DNA from: a virus
Taxonomy: Duplodnaviria; Heunggongvirae; Uroviricota; Caudoviricetes
IMG/VR virus record: IMGVR_UViG_2531839473_000007
DNA length: 5,878 nucleotides
Reading direction: 5' to 3' (one strand)
A model generated the notes under the pieces. That model saw only the letters and a list, made by a program, of their open reading frames with translations. It searched no databases and was not told the DNA's origin. Position 1 is the stretch's first letter; every line of letters starts with the position of its first letter. This document shows, one piece after another, positions 44 through 5,878 of the stretch. Position numbers and translations under genes: made by a program.

Positions 44-1930
44 GTGTACGGGGAGATACCGTTTAACCCGAACACCCGTGAGGTGACGACGGCGTGCATC
101 AGCCTGTTCCGCTACCAGGCGCAGGTGCGGCCCTCGCAGGTGCGTTCAAAAGACCACACGTTTAAGGTGCCGGACTGGCCGGGTATTTACATTGAGGATG
201 CTGAAAACCTCAACGGGCAACTGAAGCAGTACAAAATCCTGGACTGGCCGGGGCGCTACAAGGACGAGCAGCATGGTCAGGACTTTACCCGCTACCGGCT
301 GGAAGGGCTGCGTAACAGTGCTGAAACCGCCACAGGTATCAGTAACTCCCCGGCGCTGTGGCCGGGACGGCGGTTCACCCTGACGGGGCATCCGGTACAG
401 GGAGCGAACCCGAACCGTGAGTGGCAGGTGGTGAGCAGCACGCTGACGGGGAGCCAGCCGCAGGCGCTGCACGGCAGTCACGGTGAAGGAACGACGCTGA
501 GTAACCAGTTTGAGGTGATACCGGCAGACAGGACGTGGCGTCACGCGCCGCTGCCGAAGCCGAAGGTGGACGGCCCGCAGAGTGCCATCGTGACCGGGCC
601 GAAGGGCGAGGAGATATTCTGCGACGAACATGGCCGGGTACGGGTGAAGTTTCACTGGGACCGTTATCACGGTATGACGGAGGAGAGTTCATGCTGGATA
701 CGGGTGTCGCAGGCGTGGGCGGGAGCGGGGTTCGGTAATCTGGCGATACCGCGTGTGGGTCAGGAAGTGATAGTGGACTTTCTGAACGGGGACCCGGACC
801 AGCCCATCGTCACGGGACGCACCTACCATGAGGACAACCGTTCACCGGGGGATTTACCGGGCACGAAGACGCAGATGACGATACGGTCGAAGACCTATAA
901 AGGAAGCGGATTTAACGAGCTGCGGTTTGAAGACGCCACGGGCGGTGAGCAGGTGTATATCCATGTGCAGAAGAACATGGACACGGAGGTGCTTCACGAC
1001 CGGACGACGGACGTGAAGCATGACCACACGGAGACCATCGGGAACAACCAGAAAATCACGGTGGGGCTGGGCCAGACGGTGACGGTGGGGAAAGAGAATG
1101 CCGGAGGGCATGACCAGACCATCACGGTGGCCCATGACCGGAGCATCACGGTGCGCAACGACCAGACGCTGAAGGTGACGAACGACCGGCGGGTGAACGT
1201 CAGCCACGATGACGGTCTGTACGTCAGAAACGACCGAAAGGTGACGGTGGAAGGGAAGCAGGAGCACAAAACGACAGGAAACCACATCAGCCTGGTGGAG
1301 GGAAAACACAGCCTGGAGGTGAAAGGCGACCTGGCGAGGAAGATTACCGGCGCGCTGGGAATGAAGGTCCGGGATGAAATCGTACTGGAGAGCGGCGGTA
1401 AAATCACCCTGAAGGTGGGCGGCTCGTTCGTTGTCGTTCATTCTGGTGGCGTGGATATTGCCGGGCCGAAGATAAACCTGAACGGCGGGGGCAGTGCGGG
1501 GACACCGGTGGGGACGATGCAGCCGGGTGTACTGGCGGCGCTGGCGGATGACGGGGGTGATGAAGAAGGCGAAGATGACGGGCAGGGCAATGGCGACTCC
1601 GGTGATGGAGAGGGGGGGGCCGGAGATGATGATAGTGGAAACGATTCGGACAATTCAGATGATGATGAAAAGGAAATTGTTTCTATTAGTTGGTCCTATG
1701 GTAACAATCGGACAAAAGTTCAGGATACATCCAGACACTATGTAGACCTCAATCTCCATGTGCAGACAAAAGGGTATAGTCCTGGGGAAAGTGTGTCCGT
1801 CGAAATAAAATATGATGACTTTGATGGTATGGAAAGATCTCTTGCTGTTAGCGGCACGGTAGATGAATCAGGTGAGATGGTTGTTGAGCAGGTTTTATCT
1901 GGGGCAGACGTCTGTACTTTAGATGAGTAG
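44..1930 (+). CDS. vgrG: T6SS spike protein VgrG (vgrG1), 3' portion with C-terminal extension. The open frame starts at GTG 44 after a TGA at 26-28, but the vgrG reading continues upstream in another frame (apparent 1-bp deletion near nt 30-32), so this is a frameshifted gene or a sequencing error.
   Basis: Translation carries VgrG core motifs (FKVPDWPGIYIEDAENLNGQ, YKDEQHGQDFTRYRLEGLRNSAETATG, FHWDRYHG, gp5-like beta-helix repeats such as VKHDHTETIGNNQKITVGLGQTVTVG). It aligns residue-by-residue with the vgrG2 N-terminal region at 5509-5878. Stop TAG at 1928-1930. Confidence 0.9.
   Translation: MYGEIPFNPNTREVTTACISLFRYQAQVRPSQVRSKDHTFKVPDWPGIYIEDAENLNGQLKQYKILDWPGRYKDEQHGQDFTRYRLEGLRNSAETATGISNSPALWPGRRFTLTGHPVQGANPNREWQVVSSTLTGSQPQALHGSHGEGTTLSNQFEVIPADRTWRHAPLPKPKVDGPQSAIVTGPKGEEIFCDEHGRVRVKFHWDRYHGMTEESSCWIRVSQAWAGAGFGNLAIPRVGQEVIVDFLNGDPDQPIVTGRTYHEDNRSPGDLPGTKTQMTIRSKTYKGSGFNELRFEDATGGEQVYIHVQKNMDTEVLHDRTTDVKHDHTETIGNNQKITVGLGQTVTVGKENAGGHDQTITVAHDRSITVRNDQTLKVTNDRRVNVSHDDGLYVRNDRKVTVEGKQEHKTTGNHISLVEGKHSLEVKGDLARKITGALGMKVRDEIVLESGGKITLKVGGSFVVVHSGGVDIAGPKINLNGGGSAGTPVGTMQPGVLAALADDGGDEEGEDDGQGNGDSGDGEGGAGDDDSGNDSDNSDDDEKEIVSISWSYGNNRTKVQDTSRHYVDLNLHVQTKGYSPGESVSVEIKYDDFDGMERSLAVSGTVDESGEMVVEQVLSGADVCTLDE
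1547..1675 (+). other. Acidic low-complexity linker inside vgrG1 (D/E/G/S/N-rich, about 43 codons) between the VgrG core and the C-terminal domain; contains a G8 homopolymer.
   Basis: Translation ADDGGDEEGEDDGQGNGDSGDGEGGAGDDDSGNDSDNSDDDEK. Nucleotide composition switches from GC-rich to AT-rich within this segment. Confidence 0.8.
1612..1619 (+). repeat. G8 homopolymeric tract inside the vgrG1 coding sequence (codons GAG GGG GGG GCC).
   Basis: Eight consecutive G read directly at 1612-1619. Confidence 0.9.
1676..1927 (+). other. VgrG1 C-terminal extension domain of unknown function (about 84 aa, AT-rich); candidate cargo or adaptor-binding module.
   Basis: Translation KEIVSISWSYGNNRTKVQDTSRHYVDLNLHVQTKGYSPGESVSVEIKYDDFDGMERSLAVSGTVDESGEMVVEQVLSGADVCTLDE follows the gp5-like repeats and acidic linker. 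Its composition matches the downstream AT-rich cassette, not the vgrG core. Confidence 0.5.
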
Positions 1931-2095
1931 TTGTTTGGTAATATATGGCTGATGTTGTTGAATAAGAATTATATGATTAGCTGATCATTTAGATGACAGA
2001 ATACATACTACTATGTTGTATTCACTTAAAGTCTGGCGATTGTTTACATGACAGTTTTACGTGATACTTATTCGTTGAATCAGTAAGGGCTTATT

Positions 2096-2236
2096 ATGGC
2101 AAAAAAAGTTACAGCTAGTGCGGGAAAACAAAAATCGACTGTTAATGTAAAAAGACCTGCATGGTCTGATGTATATGAAGGATATCCAAAAGTTAATGGA
2201 GGTACTGAAATTGAGAGTGATTTGCCTATGAAATAA
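2096..2236 (+). other. N-terminal segment (46 codons) of the tae4-like effector gene, ending at an in-frame TAA (2234-2236) and continuing in the same frame as ORF 2237-2662.
   Basis: ATG at 2096 with Shine-Dalgarno TAAGGG at 2084-2089 (6-nt spacer). Translation MAKKVTASAGKQKSTVNVKRPAWSDVYEGYPKVNGGTEIESDLPMK. Same frame as the downstream catalytic ORF, separated only by TAA. Confidence 0.5.
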
Positions 2237-2662
2237 TTGTTTACATCAATTTTTGGGCCTGATTATGATACTACGCAATTCAATAATGGTTGTGCTACAA
2301 GAGTATCTCTTGGATTACTTTCTGAAGGATTAAAAAGAGTGGGGGAAAGAGATATTGTTATTAGTGAAAAATCTCATATCCATTATGGGAAATCAATAGA
2401 GCCCGGAGCTGCAAGATTAAAAGATTTTCTGATAAAAATATGGGGAAATGCAGATTATGTCATTAAATATCCTCTAAGCTTTGACGATGTAAGCTCGGTA
2501 TTAAATGATAAAAAAGGTGTTTATATAATGGTTTATAAAAGACCTGCGGATCATGGTGGTGCTACGGGACATGCTACACTATGGACTGGTAACAGAGCCA
2601 TTGGCGGTAATGACCATGCTGATTCCAGTGCTTTTGCAATCTATTTTTGGGAATTGAAATAA
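2237..2662 (+). CDS. Tae4-like T6SS peptidoglycan amidase effector (papain-like Cys-His hydrolase), catalytic portion. Likely a pseudogene or disrupted gene, because the natural start and RBS lie upstream at 2096 beyond an in-frame TAA.
   Basis: Motifs NNGCATRVSLGL (candidate catalytic Cys) and GHATLWTGN (candidate catalytic His), followed by GGNDHAD, fit the Tae4-family pattern as recalled. Size and AT-rich composition suit an effector cassette. The only in-frame start before the Cys is TTG at 2237, with no RBS. Confidence 0.55.
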   Translation: MFTSIFGPDYDTTQFNNGCATRVSLGLLSEGLKRVGERDIVISEKSHIHYGKSIEPGAARLKDFLIKIWGNADYVIKYPLSFDDVSSVLNDKKGVYIMVYKRPADHGGATGHATLWTGNRAIGGNDHADSSAFAIYFWELK

Positions 2663-3096
2663 TGAAAGCTATATTTTTTATATTCTGTATTTTTTTTATG
2701 GGAAATTCATTGTTATATTCAGAGGCTAAAGCCAGTGAATCAGAAAGTACTCTGGATGATTATAAAATATTTACACTCGCTAAATGCATTACCAGTAATT
2801 ATGAAAAAATGGGGGTTGATTTTACAAAACTACCATTGAAAGATAACACTATGGGATTTATTGATATTGATGCTGGACTCGCTTTTTATCGAAATAAGGA
2901 TAGTGTTTTAGCATCTTTCATTAATAAAAAAACAGGGGGTTTTTACAGGCCAAAACAAACTAGTGGTGATTTAGCATCTTCAAATATGGTTATATACGAC
3001 TGCGTAAATTTTTATCATTCAAAAGAGTTGGGTGTATTTCTAAAAAAAATCATTCATGAGAGGACTGTCGAAATTGAGAGAAACGCACTCGAATAG
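2662..3096 (+). CDS. Periplasmic immunity protein candidate (Tai4-like by synteny) with an N-terminal signal peptide.
   Basis: ATG at 2662 overlaps the upstream stop (TAATG). Signal peptide MKAIFFIFCIFFMGNSLLYSEAKA, then a hydrophilic mature protein of about 120 aa. Sits immediately downstream of the amidase effector, as in effector-immunity pairs. The ORF-track start (TTG 2647) is less plausible than ATG 2662. Confidence 0.5.
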   Translation: MKAIFFIFCIFFMGNSLLYSEAKASESESTLDDYKIFTLAKCITSNYEKMGVDFTKLPLKDNTMGFIDIDAGLAFYRNKDSVLASFINKKTGGFYRPKQTSGDLASSNMVIYDCVNFYHSKELGVFLKKIIHERTVEIERNALE

Positions 3097-3271
3097 ATAA
3101 TTCTGGCGGTGACTTTGTTTTTTTTGGATGCAATGCAATATATAAAAATTGTATTTGTTCGAAAATAATATAAAATATCCGAGAAAAATATCATTCGCTA
3201 TTAAAGTGTCTAAGCGTTTTTACATAAGTACTTTACATCGTTTAGTTTAAAAACGCGGCTATCAATAAATG

Positions 3272-3288
3272 TCGCAAAGGATTTGCGA
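3272..3288. promoter_or_regulatory. Perfect 7-bp inverted repeat TCGCAAA-gga-TTTGCGA about 45 bp upstream of the PAAR start, in an AT-rich intergenic region; candidate operator or promoter element.
   Basis: Palindrome read directly. TTGCGA within it could serve as a -35-like hexamer, with TATACA about 19 bp downstream. No strong assignment. Confidence 0.25.
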
Positions 3289-3331
3289 TATAATTCAATA
3301 TGTAAATTATACAACACATAAGGAAATTTAT

Positions 3332-3616
3332 ATGCCCACAGCAGCCAGACTCAGCGATAAAGGCACCCAGCATGACGGTTATTATGAGACCGCCATTATT
3401 GCAGGCTCCTCCTCCGTCTTTATTGATGGTATGCCCGCCGCCCGTCAGGGCGATCCGCTGACACCGCATTCCAAACCCGACCATCCCCCTCACCCCCGTA
3501 AAATCGCAGGCGGCTCTGCCACTGTCTTTATTGACGGTAAACCTGCCGCCAGAACCGGCGATGCCATTGACTGTGGCGGCGTGGTTATCGGTGGCGGCAC
3601 GGTAAATATAGGCTGA
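3332..3616 (+). CDS. Stand-alone PAAR-domain protein (T6SS spike-sharpening tip), 94 aa.
   Basis: Three PAAR-type motifs (TAARLSD, PAARQGD, PAARTGD) with G/I-rich beta-strand spacers. Shine-Dalgarno AAGGAAA 6 nt before ATG 3332. Stop TGA at 3614-3616. The ORF-track upstream ATG at 3269 lacks an RBS, and the PAAR domain begins at Met 3332. Confidence 0.9.
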   Translation: MPTAARLSDKGTQHDGYYETAIIAGSSSVFIDGMPAARQGDPLTPHSKPDHPPHPRKIAGGSATVFIDGKPAARTGDAIDCGGVVIGGGTVNIG

Positions 3617-3705
3617 TTAATTATCAGGGAGGCTGTATGCCCTCAGAAGGATTACGTTTCACGCTGTCGGTGGCCGGCATTGTGGAGATGGCGACGGCGG
3701 TGGTC
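3612..3705 (+). repeat. Direct repeat copy 1 (about 94 bp, about 90 percent identical to 4898-4987): TGATTAAT junction, Shine-Dalgarno GGGAGG, and the first 23 codons of vgrG.
   Basis: Alignment by eye: gctgattaat..cagggagg..atgccctcagaaggattacgtttcacgctgtcggtggccggcattgtggagatggcgacggcggtggt versus the vgrG2 5' region. Confidence 0.9.
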
Positions 3706-4398
3706 GTAGAGGACGGCATATTTGGAAAAAATACATACGACGCAGTGAAAATATTTCAGCGGTATAATGGGTTAAATGATGATGGCATCGTAGGGCCACA
3801 AACCTGGCGGAAATTGGGTGTTCCTGAACTTTTAACGCGAAGTTCATCAGGCTCTCCCGCCAGCCCTTCTTCGGGGCCATCCCGGAGCCCTTCTGCTGAT
3901 TCAAATGGTACTGTTGCTGAGACTGGTGATGGATTCTGTTTCCCATTCCCTGCACTTCCTGCGAGATCGTGGACAAACGGCGGTCGTCAATTTGGGGCGT
4001 CACGCAGTGGGGGCCGCAGACATGCCGGTTGTGATTTGATATTCCCCCGAGGAACGCTTATTTATGCTGTTGCTGATGGCATATTAGTTCAGCCCCCATA
4101 TCCATTTTACGAAGGTACTTCTGCTGTAGAAATTAGACATGGCAACCTTCTCCTTCGCTATGGTGAAATTATTAATGGGTCATACGTAGGTGGGCAAACG
4201 GTTCAAAAAGGTCAGGTTATTGCTAAGGTAGGAAGGCTGCATTCGGGTTCATCTATGTTGCATCTGGAGATTTATACGAATGCGACCTTATCGGGTGACC
4301 TTACAGATCGCAACAGAGCGCCTTATCAAAGACGTTCTGATGTGACAGATCCTGCCCCATATCTGGATATCTGGAAAAATAACCTGCCTACCCTCTGA
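3637..4398 (+). CDS. Chimeric putative T6SS effector: vgrG-derived N-terminus (23 aa), then a partial peptidoglycan-binding (PG_binding_1-like) motif, a Ser/Pro-rich linker and an M23/LytM-like peptidase domain.
   Basis: N-terminus MPSEGLRFTLSVAGIVEMATAVV matches the vgrG2 start MSSEGLRFTLSVDGIVEMATAVV. DGIFGKNTYDAVKIFQRYNGLNDDGIVGPQTWRKLG matches the second half of the PG_binding_1 consensus. M23-like blocks: HAGCD (HxxxD), GTLIYAVADGILV, VEIRHGNLLLRYGEI, GQTVQKGQVIAKVG, SMLHLEIY, VTDPAPYL. Shine-Dalgarno GGGAGG precedes ATG 3637. Confidence 0.75.
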   Translation: MPSEGLRFTLSVAGIVEMATAVVVEDGIFGKNTYDAVKIFQRYNGLNDDGIVGPQTWRKLGVPELLTRSSSGSPASPSSGPSRSPSADSNGTVAETGDGFCFPFPALPARSWTNGGRQFGASRSGGRRHAGCDLIFPRGTLIYAVADGILVQPPYPFYEGTSAVEIRHGNLLLRYGEIINGSYVGGQTVQKGQVIAKVGRLHSGSSMLHLEIYTNATLSGDLTDRNRAPYQRRSDVTDPAPYLDIWKNNLPTL

Positions 4399-4417: not shown

Positions 4418-4882
4418 ATGTTCAAAAAGATAATACTATTTTTAACGGTGATATCTTCGAGTTTTGTTGTTTGTCTTGCGGCTGATTCAGAAAAGATATT
4501 ATCAGTAGATCCTGTTGTGAATAATTTTGGCGTTGATGAAGTCGTAGGGTTGCCTCATCCTGTTTGTACTTTGAGTCTGGCTGAAAATAATGAGAAACAT
4601 CTTTATAATTATGTTGAGGGCGGTATCTGCCCTGTGGGCGGTGAAAGTTGTCCTTATTCAGCCGTCATAAAACTGAATGGCAAGATGGCGATATTAAAAC
4701 AGATATCGACAAATAAAAATATCAGTTTTTTTAAGAATGATGAGGTATCGATTATCACAACACAAAGCCCAGTTAAAGGAGCTGTGGTGGATGAAGAGGG
4801 TGGTGATGTGAATGCCGTTATTGTAATCAAAACAAAAAATAGCGAAATAAAACTTAATATGTCCGGGTACTGTGGTATTTAA
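4418..4882 (+). CDS. Putative periplasmic immunity protein for the M23-like effector (secreted, Cys-containing, no family recognised).
   Basis: Signal peptide MFKKIILFLTVISSSFVVCLA followed by ADSEK. Four Cys in the mature part (C50, C71, C78, C152). Shine-Dalgarno AAGGA 9 nt before ATG 4418. AT-rich. Immediately downstream of the effector. Confidence 0.5.
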   Translation: MFKKIILFLTVISSSFVVCLAADSEKILSVDPVVNNFGVDEVVGLPHPVCTLSLAENNEKHLYNYVEGGICPVGGESCPYSAVIKLNGKMAILKQISTNKNISFFKNDEVSIITTQSPVKGAVVDEEGGDVNAVIVIKTKNSEIKLNMSGYCGI

Positions 4883-4897
4883 AACCGGGCTATTATC

Positions 4898-4987
4898 GCT
4901 GATTAATCAAGGGAGGTCATATGTCCTCAGAAGGATTACGTTTCACGCTGTCGGTGGACGGTATTGTGGAGATGGCGACGGCAGTGG
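4898..4987 (+). repeat. Direct repeat copy 2: the authentic vgrG2 translation-initiation region and first 23 codons.
   Basis: Same alignment as copy 1; gctgattaat at 4898-4907, GGGAGG at 4911-4916, ATG at 4921. Confidence 0.9.
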
Positions 4988-5878
4988 TGAGCTTCCGTCT
5001 GTACCAGCACCACTGCACACCGTTCATCCTGGATGTGGATATCGCCAGCGGACTGTCTGACCTGACGGCGGAGGATTTTCTGGAGAAAAGCGCGGTGCTG
5101 ACGGTCTGGCAGGGCGACACTGCACAGCGTTACGTCAGCGGTATCGTGACGGAGGTGCAGCTCGGTGAGAACAACGACTGGCAGATGCGTTATTCCCTGA
5201 GCATCAGCCCGCCGCTGTGGCGGGCAGGGTTACGGCAGAACTTCCGTATCTTCCAGCAGCAGGACATCGGGACGATATCAGCACAGCTTCTTGAAGAGAA
5301 CGGGGTGACGGCGTGGATGCCGCTGTTCTATGAGGCGCACCCGGCGCGGGAGTTCTGCGTGCAGTACGGGGAGAGCGACCTGGCGTTCCTGACCCGGCTG
5401 TGGGCGGAGGAAGGTATCTTCTTTTATGAGCGCTGCAGTCAGGAAGGGCCGGAACAGAAGCTGGCGGTGTGTGATGACGTGGCGGGGCTGACGGGAATGG
5501 GGGCGCTGGCGTTTAACCCGGACACGACGACCGGGGGAACGACGGAGTACATCAGCGAGTTTCGTTACCGTGCGCAGATAAGCGTGGCGTCGGTGGAGAC
5601 GCAGGATTATACGTTCAAAACGCCGGGGTGGCCGGGGTACTACAGCCATGCCGGGGAGAGCCTGAACGGGCAGGGAACGCAGTACGAGATATTTGATTAT
5701 CCGGGGCGTTTCAAGGATGAGCAGCACGGCCAGGACTTTGCGCGTTACCAGACGGAAGGGTGGCGGAACGGGGCGGAGACGGCGAGCGGGGTGTGTAACA
5801 CGGCGCGACTGTGGCCGGGAACGCGGTTCCGGCTGACGGGCCATCCCTCAGGGACGCTGAACCGGGAATGGCAGGTTG
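4921..5878 (+). CDS. vgrG: T6SS spike protein VgrG (vgrG2), N-terminal about 319 codons; 3' end beyond the window.
   Basis: Open frame from ATG 4921 to the window end with no stop (translated by hand). Begins MSSEGLRFTLSVDGIVEMATAVVSFRLYQ and continues with VgrG core motifs (TFKTPGWPGYY, FKDEQHGQDFARYQTEGWRNGAETASG). Strong Shine-Dalgarno AAGGGAGG. Confidence 0.92.
   Translation, partial: MSSEGLRFTLSVDGIVEMATAVVSFRLYQHHCTPFILDVDIASGLSDLTAEDFLEKSAVLTVWQGDTAQRYVSGIVTEVQLGENNDWQMRYSLSISPPLWRAGLRQNFRIFQQQDIGTISAQLLEENGVTAWMPLFYEAHPAREFCVQYGESDLAFLTRLWAEEGIFFYERCSQEGPEQKLAVCDDVAGLTGMGALAFNPDTTTGGTTEYISEFRYRAQISVASVETQDYTFKTPGWPGYYSHAGESLNGQGTQYEIFDYPGRFKDEQHGQDFARYQTEGWRNGAETASGVCNTARLWPGTRFRLTGHPSGTLNREWQV

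Follow-up and report, generated by a model that had tools for sequence, protein, structure and literature searches.

What is encoded by a small gene that overlaps the end of a broken amidase gene by one base, and what becomes of such a gene once its partner has been disabled? The question is raised by a stretch of DNA of 5,878 nucleotides (IMG/VR virus record IMGVR_UViG_2531839473_000007; "the window" denotes this whole stretch), which is located in the vgrG cargo region of a type VI secretion system (T6SS) cluster and carries an open reading frame (ORF) at positions 2662–3096. A first-pass annotation had read this ORF as an immunity gene of Tai4-like type, with a periplasmic product, that overlaps the disrupted gene of its cognate peptidoglycan amidase, Tae4. 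Family profile, fold and cross-genus synteny agree in favoring that reading and, as judged from sequence comparison, ORF 2662–3096 is very probably a Tai4-type immunity gene of the adjoining disrupted Tae4.

The gene at 2662–3096 and its relation to the Tai4 superfamily

On the + strand, the ORF extends from ATG 2662 to TAG 3094–3096 and comprises 144 codons, with a product of 144 amino acids. The sequence TAATG stands precisely at 2660–2664, where TAA 2660–2662 closes the upstream ORF and ATG 2662–2664 opens the immunity ORF, one base being common to both; a check of sequence and frame confirmed the coordinates and the overlap given by the first-pass annotation. Homologues of the protein occur in Escherichia coli, Salmonella, Citrobacter, Leclercia, and Kalamiella/Pantoea, with 45–64% identity and E values of 1e-30 to 1e-50, and the ratio of nonsynonymous to synonymous substitution rates (dN/dS) among them is 0.14–0.27. 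Since there are homologues across genera and these ratios are low, this is a real gene and not a chance ORF. An E. coli contig (GCA_000190955.1 GL872061.1) is identical to the window, and positions 1900–3340 match, with 100% identity, the chromosome of strain MFDS1022581, the sole hit to that stretch among 5,426 complete E. coli genomes. The complete genome NZ_CP169399.1 contains a single copy of the module at the sensitivity of megablast.

Tai4 proteins are defined by a Sec leader, a five-helix fold, a dimeric state, a conserved Cys pair, and a loop before the Cys-bearing helix that plugs the active site of the amidase (PMC3852654; PMC3695027). The window protein itself gave no Pfam or NCBIfam match, not even to Pfam Tai4 at E ≤ 10, and a phmmer search against the PDB sequences returned no meaningful match, with MITSUBA-1 and toxin B appearing as noise. 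The comparison with Tai4 profiles that the first-pass annotation had pointed to was thus negative for the protein taken alone, and the link is made through its relatives or through structure. The close family consists of 17 clusters at 90% identity, from E. coli, Salmonella, Citrobacter, Leclercia, Kalamiella/Pantoea, and metagenomes, none of them annotated. In its alignment, Cys42 and Cys114 are invariant, and the motifs LA(R/K)C-x3-NY, GFID, GDL, and N-x-V-I-Y-D-C-x2-F-x2-S-x2-L can be recognized. Eleven of 15 close homologues match Pfam Tai4 (PF16695) over nearly its full length (positions 3–89 of 92), with 14–23.5 bits and a best E value of 8.6e-5; the highest score belongs to P0005 (23.5 bits), and P0001, which is 97% identical to the window protein, reaches 15.3 bits, the gathering score of the model being 27.1 bits. 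Pfam Tai4 is the sole family matched repeatedly among these 15 sequences, and their profile found in the PDB a marginal match to Rap2a alone (E = 0.056).

A broader set made the relation clearer. A profile search of 1.84 billion representative proteins provided 75 relatives, of which 61 were aligned; 25 of the 61 match Pfam Tai4 (best E = 1.9e-7), and among 10 of the first distant representatives, scanned separately, there was one match to that model, below threshold. When the 61-sequence profile was compared with 177,635 PDB sequences, it retrieved Rap1b (5.1e-6), Rap2a (3.5e-5), and StTai4 (3.6e-4 and 6.8e-4), and nothing else below E = 0.7. These alignments cover nearly the full mature domain, and Cys42 and Cys114, which are conserved in at least 90% of the extended set, fall on the known disulfide Cys residues of Rap1b, Rap2a, and StTai4, these being C42–C102 in Rap2a and C48–C108 in StTai4 (PMC3852654; PMC3695027). 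The predicted model of the window protein is a compact all-alpha fold of five helices and can be superimposed on structures of Tai4 and Rap proteins, with moderate fold-match scores. Tai4a, which has the Rap1a fold of Serratia marcescens, was also considered as the relative and rejected, Rap1a being absent from all profile and fold matches. Moreover, a homologue of the gene follows an intact tae4 behind vgrG, with the one-base overlap, in Citrobacter (L005–L007), Kalamiella (L008), and two E. coli contigs (L020 and L021). Similarity to Tai4 was found, therefore, in profile, in fold, and in synteny, and the protein is best placed, from its sequence relatives, in the Tai4 superfamily, as a divergent member that stays under the Pfam threshold, and not among the canonical Pfam Tai4 proteins.

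The N-terminus has the features of a Sec signal peptide under rule-based criteria, with Lys2, a hydrophobic core of 12 residues (mean Kyte–Doolittle value 2.77), the motif A-K-A|S at 22–24, and no lipobox. All family members begin with a variable hydrophobic segment, and StTai4 is cleaved after Ala26 (PMC3695027). A periplasmic location of the window protein may accordingly be expected from its leader. A lipoprotein reading was rejected for the window protein, which has no lipobox; lipobox-like motifs are found in the relatives P0005 and P0009.

The disrupted tae4 gene and orphan copies of its partner

The ORFs at 2096–2236 and 2237–2662 share one frame, and the TAA at 2234–2236 alone stands between them. 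Pfam Tae4 (PF14113) matches the piece of 141 amino acids with E = 9.3e-14 over the whole profile (positions 1–125 of 125), and the nearest solved relative of the window Tae4 is the Tae4-family endopeptidase Ssp1 of Serratia marcescens (4BI3; E = 2.7e-5). The two E. coli contigs with an intact pair have a continuous tae4 of 188 codons, followed by the same overlapping immunity gene; a comparison of the 1001 nt of both genes with the window shows 9 differences (99.1% identity), one of which gives GAA (Glu47) instead of TAA. The Tae4 proteins of Citrobacter and Kalamiella (186 amino acids) also continue through the position of the stop. The first-pass annotation had described the upstream effector as disrupted, and the comparison with the intact 188-residue allele reduces this disruption to one in-frame TAA at codon 47. 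The same 1001 nt with the stop are present in 10 independent assemblies, including two complete genomes, all of which encode the exact window protein. Because so many independent assemblies share it, the premature stop is not a sequencing slip. These assemblies differ by at most one mismatch in 5.9 kb, and all of this indicates a real, recent mutation in a nearly clonal lineage.

The 46 N-terminal residues that are lost include positions conserved in relatives (RPAWSxVYxGYPK), and the N-terminal residues of a solved Tae4 to which they align (6IJF, residues 7–30) are ordered; since the missing part is both conserved and ordered, the window Tae4 is probably inactive. The immunity ORF is intact in the genome in which tae4 carries the TAA at codon 47. 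The proposal that it would be an orphan immunity gene if the effector were dead is thus borne out to the extent that tae4 is broken, and the gene is, on the sequence evidence and with the loss of Tae4 activity as a likely consequence of the stop, a recently orphaned, de facto orphan gene.

On the basis of gene anatomy, the nonsense mutation, the family assignment by profile and fold, and the syntenic, overlapping position of the gene, we consider it quite probable that the locus encodes a Tai4-superfamily periplasmic immunity protein of the adjoining Tae4, orphaned by a G-to-T change and with an expression that is probably lowered. The protein would be a small periplasmic one, with a Sec signal peptide, an all-helical bundle, and a conserved Cys pair, paired with the peptidoglycan amidase encoded directly upstream in a low-GC cargo module behind vgrG in an E. 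coli T6SS island. By analogy with the solved Tae4–Tai4 complexes, the mature protein could dimerize in the periplasm and plug the active site of the amidase with the loop before the penultimate helix, which would protect the cell from attack by sister cells. The single G-to-T change at 2234 turned Glu47 of the amidase into TAA and would have left the immunity gene de facto orphaned; still intact, this gene could protect against E. coli strains that have the intact allele. Its translation would normally ride on ribosomes that finish tae4, so that its expression is probably lowered at present.

Further steps of toxin loss are found among the relatives. In L025, tae4 is frameshifted; in Leclercia (L022), the last 49 Tae4 residues alone remain; and there is no tae4 in Salmonella (L002–L004, a cluster of 480 member sequences), in L023/L024, or in L026. 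On the 5' side of the immunity start, about 25 nt have been retained even in the full orphans (L002:4970–5000, L023:3970–4000, and L026:2972–3002); they correspond to the final eight or so tae4 codons and can still be read as a Tae4 C-terminus (VKYIWGLK*, TIYFKELT*, and VIYLGGET, versus AIYFWELK* in intact genes). This stub holds the ribosome-binding site, the Trp-Glu codons TGGGA(A/G) being the Shine–Dalgarno (SD) sequence, and in orphans the SD is upgraded to AGGAGG in Salmonella (-11.5 kcal/mol) and AAGGAG in L026, as opposed to GGGAA or GGGAG in coupled pairs. Between two orphans, dN/dS is 0.17, which corresponds to purifying selection and shows, as far as substitution patterns can, that members of this family can be retained for a function even as orphans. 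It may tentatively be proposed, as one of the less certain readings of this series, that the last eight or so Tae4 codons (IYFWELK-stop) are a portable ribosome-binding cassette that survives toxin loss and is reshaped from GGGAA to AGGAGG. The window would then be step zero of a repeatable route to a free-standing immunity gene, and its strain a "disarmed but shielded" cheater toward kin with the intact allele.

Around the orphans of Salmonella enterica (L002–L004) and the metagenomes (L023/L024), there are series of small genes without annotation, all on one strand; among the neighbors are fragments of CdiI, one of PAAR, and a gene resembling Tli4_C. The CdiI fragments and the gene size, on which this view is based, suggest that these loci are immunity-gene islands; the neighboring genes in Salmonella, L023, and L022 gave no informative Pfam matches.

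Translation of the immunity gene and rival explanations

The one-base overlap is kept in all intact pairs. The SD of the immunity gene (-4.2 kcal/mol) is the weakest of six starts compared in the window, and its start is the least accessible of the six, with a mean unpaired probability of 0.27–0.35 versus 0.42–0.57. Across the family, the pairing energy of SD and anti-SD is -4.2 to -6.8 kcal/mol in six coupled or recently decayed copies, and -8.4, -8.7, and -11.5 kcal/mol in three long-standing orphans. Because the overlap is conserved, the SD is weak, the start is inaccessible, and long-standing orphans have a stronger SD, these sequence features support a normal translation of the immunity gene by coupling to tae4, in line with the translational coupling that the first-pass annotation had deduced from the overlap. 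In the window, a loss of this coupling is plausible. The same annotation had suggested that expression may depend on read-through of the disrupted effector, which appears to be the least likely route. UAAU is the strongest termination context in E. coli, and the premature stop is TAA followed by T; read-through is unlikely for this reason. Expression of the immunity gene in the lineage of the window is probably either reduced, or sustained by independent initiation, or by re-initiation at the TTG beside the stop. Re-initiation at TTG 2237 could occur but, without an SD in front of this codon, has no support.

The region from 1900 to 3400 gave promoter-like sites at the rate expected by chance (10 vs. 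8.3 ± 3.2), and the scan found no plus-strand terminator after the immunity gene. The 10-mer TTGTTTACAT occurs at 2040–2049, upstream of the tae4 start, and again at 2237–2246, directly after the premature stop; the second copy of TTGTTTACAT lies within the best promoter-like match of the region (TTTACA-18-TATGAT, 10/12). The 425 untranslated nt on the 3' side of the premature stop contain 13% C and 22% G. As such a C-poor untranslated stretch is a poor substrate for Rho loading, Rho-dependent polarity would be unlikely.

In the codons of the signal peptide, a tract of eight T residues appears as T7 in L027 and L029 and as T6 in L028, which frameshifts the leader and leaves an ORF of 132 amino acids from Met13. 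In L028, other homopolymers lack single bases too, and there are further indels in the tae4 fragment. The T7 and T6 variants may be sequencing errors; alternatively, they could reflect decay driven by slippage, or phase variation. The 132-residue variants derive in part from the start choice of gene callers on identical DNA (L030) and in part from T7 or T6 tracts and, hence, they were not counted as firm evidence of decay.

Several observations weigh against the gene being a maintained Tai4-type immunity gene. The window protein itself lacks a match in Pfam, NCBIfam, and the PDB sequences, and every close relative scores under the Pfam Tai4 gathering threshold. The lineage with the stop is so nearly clonal that a test of selection is powerless and the intact ORF is uninformative in this respect. 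Compared with the intact-pair allele, the window gene has five nonsynonymous and no synonymous changes, among them N81S, which places Ser at a nearly invariant Asn, and D124G. Moreover, in several other E. coli alleles a truncation or a frameshift affects the C-terminus, and some assemblies of the same lineage have the frameshifted T-tract. The T-tract variants and the truncated alleles fit decay rather than a maintained function, and would be expected, together with the weakest SD and the least accessible start in the window, if the gene were a remnant, formerly of Tai4 type, that has been neutral and poorly translated since the death of the effector and is turning into a pseudogene without present function. 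Nevertheless, the ORF is intact in at least 46 contigs with the exact protein; the Salmonella and metagenome orphans persist under purifying selection with improved SDs; the 5:0 split is not significant (about 0.26 under neutrality, by our estimate); and the T-tract variants lie in homopolymers and, given the deletions of L028 in other homopolymers, may be sequencing errors. Decay is thus a possible, though rather doubtful, explanation. As for whether the window gene is still expressed and protective, the evidence seems evenly poised.

The amidase might also be alive. TAA and TTG are directly adjacent and in frame, and re-initiation at TTG 2237 would produce a protein of 141 residues in which the Pfam Tae4 domain, with its putative catalytic Cys-His-Asp region, is complete, and to which the immunity gene would still be cognate, coupled, and needed; in the Prokaryotic Genome Annotation Pipeline (PGAP), the label is Tae4 family protein and not pseudogene. 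However, the lack of an SD before this TTG and the loss of the conserved N-terminal residues, whose ordered counterparts in 6IJF imply that the fragment is likely misfolded or cannot be loaded, make a live effector improbable; the further indels in the tae4 fragment of L028 point the same way, unless they are sequencing errors. A role other than immunity, such as that of an adaptor, a chaperone, or another small periplasmic or secreted helical protein that travels with Tae4, would agree with the label "hypothetical protein" given by every source and with the moderate fold scores. But the sole recurrent family match and the sole significant PDB matches are Tai4 or Rap immunity proteins, a signal peptide is unfit for a cytoplasmic T6SS adaptor, and survival of orphans without an effector speaks against an effector chaperone. 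In addition, an immunity gene directly downstream of its toxin gene is the canonical arrangement (PMC3852654), and it is the one found here, with the overlap directly 3' of the toxin. A non-immunity function seems, in consequence, very improbable, and an orphaned Tai4-superfamily immunity gene remains the preferred explanation.

The surrounding module and comparison with known systems

The features of the window are listed in Table 1. A low-GC block of about 1650–3330 (about 29–46% GC, versus 53–63% in windows of the flanking vgrG core and PAAR) starts within the 3' end of vgrG and extends to the PAAR gene. The low-GC C-terminal part of VgrG includes an acidic linker rich in Asp, Glu, and Gly and a C-terminal domain of about 80 residues without a Pfam match. 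The C-terminal extension of VgrG, tae4, and the immunity gene thus appear to form a single exchangeable module, in which the extension may be an effector-docking domain. At position 31, in the vgrG frame and near the contig edge, the window has one G fewer than other assemblies of the locus (GTGTGGCGG there, GTGT-GCGG here), which is probably an assembly error; because of this missing G, the listed vgrG ORF begins at GTG 44.

Table 1. Coordinates of the features in the window, in order of position
Feature	Positions	Strand	Basis
VgrG, 5' end cut by the window edge	44..1930	+	Pfam, composition, annotation
Tae4-family amidase gene, 188 codons, nonsense at codon 47; two ORFs (46 and 141 aa) in PGAP	2096..2662	+	Pfam Tae4, same frame, intact allele
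46-codon ORF (first piece of tae4)	2096..2236	+	ORF list
Premature TAA through G to T at 2234 (GAA, Glu47, in the intact allele); TTG directly after, at 2237	2234..2236	+	Frame check, allele comparison
141-codon ORF (second piece of tae4)	2237..2662	+	ORF list, Pfam
Weak Shine–Dalgarno GGGAA, from the Trp-Glu codons of the Tae4 C-terminal motif FWELK	2649..2653	+	Anti-SD hybridization, -4.2 kcal/mol
TAATG stop/start overlap of tae4 and the immunity gene	2660..2664	+	Same overlap in Citrobacter, Kalamiella, and the intact E. coli allele
Immunity gene, 144-aa precursor, predicted divergent Tai4-superfamily periplasmic protein	2662..3096	+	RefSeq WP_000643727.1, annotated "hypothetical protein"
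Predicted Sec signal peptide, residues 1–24: MKAIFFIFCIFFMGNSLLYSEAKA, then SE	2662..2733	+	Rule-based features; family N-termini; StTai4 comparison
T8 homopolymer in signal-peptide codons; T7 or T6, with frame shifted, in some assemblies	2690..2697	+	Assembly comparison
Codon for Cys42, first Cys of the conserved Tai4 pair	2785..2787	+	Invariant in the close-family alignment; aligns with the disulfide Cys of Rap1b, Rap2a, and StTai4 (PMC3852654)
Residues 92–109, long loop before the penultimate helix; invariant G102-D103-L104 and N108	2935..2988	+	Model secondary structure, invariant columns, StTai4 alignment
Codon for Cys114, second Cys of the conserved pair	3001..3003	+	Family alignments, alignment to solved Tai4 proteins
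AT-rich spacer, 235 nt	3097..3331	+	Gene map
PAAR gene	3332..3616	+	Pfam
PG_binding_1 and M23 peptidase ORF	3637..4398	+	Pfam
Second signal-peptide ORF	4418..4882	+	Gene map
Second vgrG	4921 onward	+	Gene map

Farther downstream, a direct repeat of 79 nt with 91% identity (3626–3704 and 4910–4988) spans a ribosome-binding site and the first 22 or so codons of vgrG. The ORF with the M23 domain opens with the N-terminus of vgrG (MPSEGLRFTLSVAGIVEMATAVV), followed by the peptidoglycan-binding and M23 domains, and the repeat flanks this putative effector together with the signal-peptide ORF 4418–4882, which has no family match and may be its immunity gene. In E. coli L020, a full vgrG directly follows the PAAR gene, without the M23 cassette, and the M23 region looks like a cassette insertion or a recombination at the 5' end of vgrG. 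The surroundings of the module in NZ_CP169399.1 (7595–8823 and 16621–18585), L010, and L011 contain insertions of IS2 and IS21, a group II intron and, on the downstream side, a vgrG that is split. The insertion site of IS2 and its orientation are not the same in two complete genomes with the identical tae4-nonsense module; thus, the T6SS island is under active rearrangement or degradation.

These results give a name to a small Enterobacterales family that has so far been a "hypothetical protein" everywhere and is missed by the Pfam Tai4 model, and they suggest that an Ssp1-like Tae4 can pair with an immunity protein of the Rap2a/Tai4 fold instead of one of the Rap1a fold. Moreover, they provide within one family a graded series, from intact pair through nonsense toxin, frameshifted toxin, and toxin stub to free orphan with a stronger SD, which could serve for studying the persistence of immunity genes after the loss of their toxins and the replacement of translational coupling. 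For the window itself, this is an ordinary annotation result in a well-understood arrangement: Tae4–Tai4 pairs have been thoroughly characterized, and orphan T6SS immunity genes are well known. What is new is modest, namely an unannotated Tai4 subfamily under the Pfam threshold, with a longer putative inhibitory loop; the pairing of the Ssp1-like amidase with the Rap2a/Tai4 fold; and the series of decay stages, with a toxin-derived ribosome-binding stub that is kept and strengthened in orphans.

The window protein has in common with the Tai4 proteins of Salmonella Typhimurium (4J30, 4J32, and 4HFF) and Enterobacter cloacae (4HFK) a Sec-type leader, predicted here, a five-helix domain of about 100 residues, a Cys pair joining the first long helix to the penultimate helix, and a gene placed directly 3' of the Tae4 amidase gene in a T6SS locus. 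However, identity to them is just 8–20% in structural alignments, and the two Cys residues are separated by 72 residues rather than 60. The loop at residues 92–109 is about 4–12 residues longer than the d–e loop, which is inhibitory in Tai4 (PMC3695027), and contains the invariant G-D-L; it is the positional equivalent of the inhibitory loop and, by analogy, might have the same role. The family also differs in having no strictly conserved Ser at the position of StTai4 Ser98, while the partner Tae4 is without the Cys-Cys pair near the catalytic Asp that is known in the Ec and St Tae4 proteins (PMC3695027).

With Rap2a (3ZIB), Rap2b (4B6I), and Rap1b (4AX2) of Serratia marcescens, which belong to the Tai4 family sensu Srikannathasan et al. 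2013, the window protein shares the disulfide positions. Its sequence identity to these proteins is 9–20%, and the nearest solved relative of the partner effector, Ssp1, is likewise from Serratia. Orphan T6SS immunity genes and arrays of them occur, for example, in the auxiliary clusters of Vibrio cholerae and in the acquired interbacterial defence islands of Bacteroidales. As in these arrays, the immunity gene of the window is kept without a working cognate effector. Unlike in them, the effector gene is still present and only one nucleotide away from the intact state, so that the window represents the earliest stage of orphaning and not a horizontally accumulated array.

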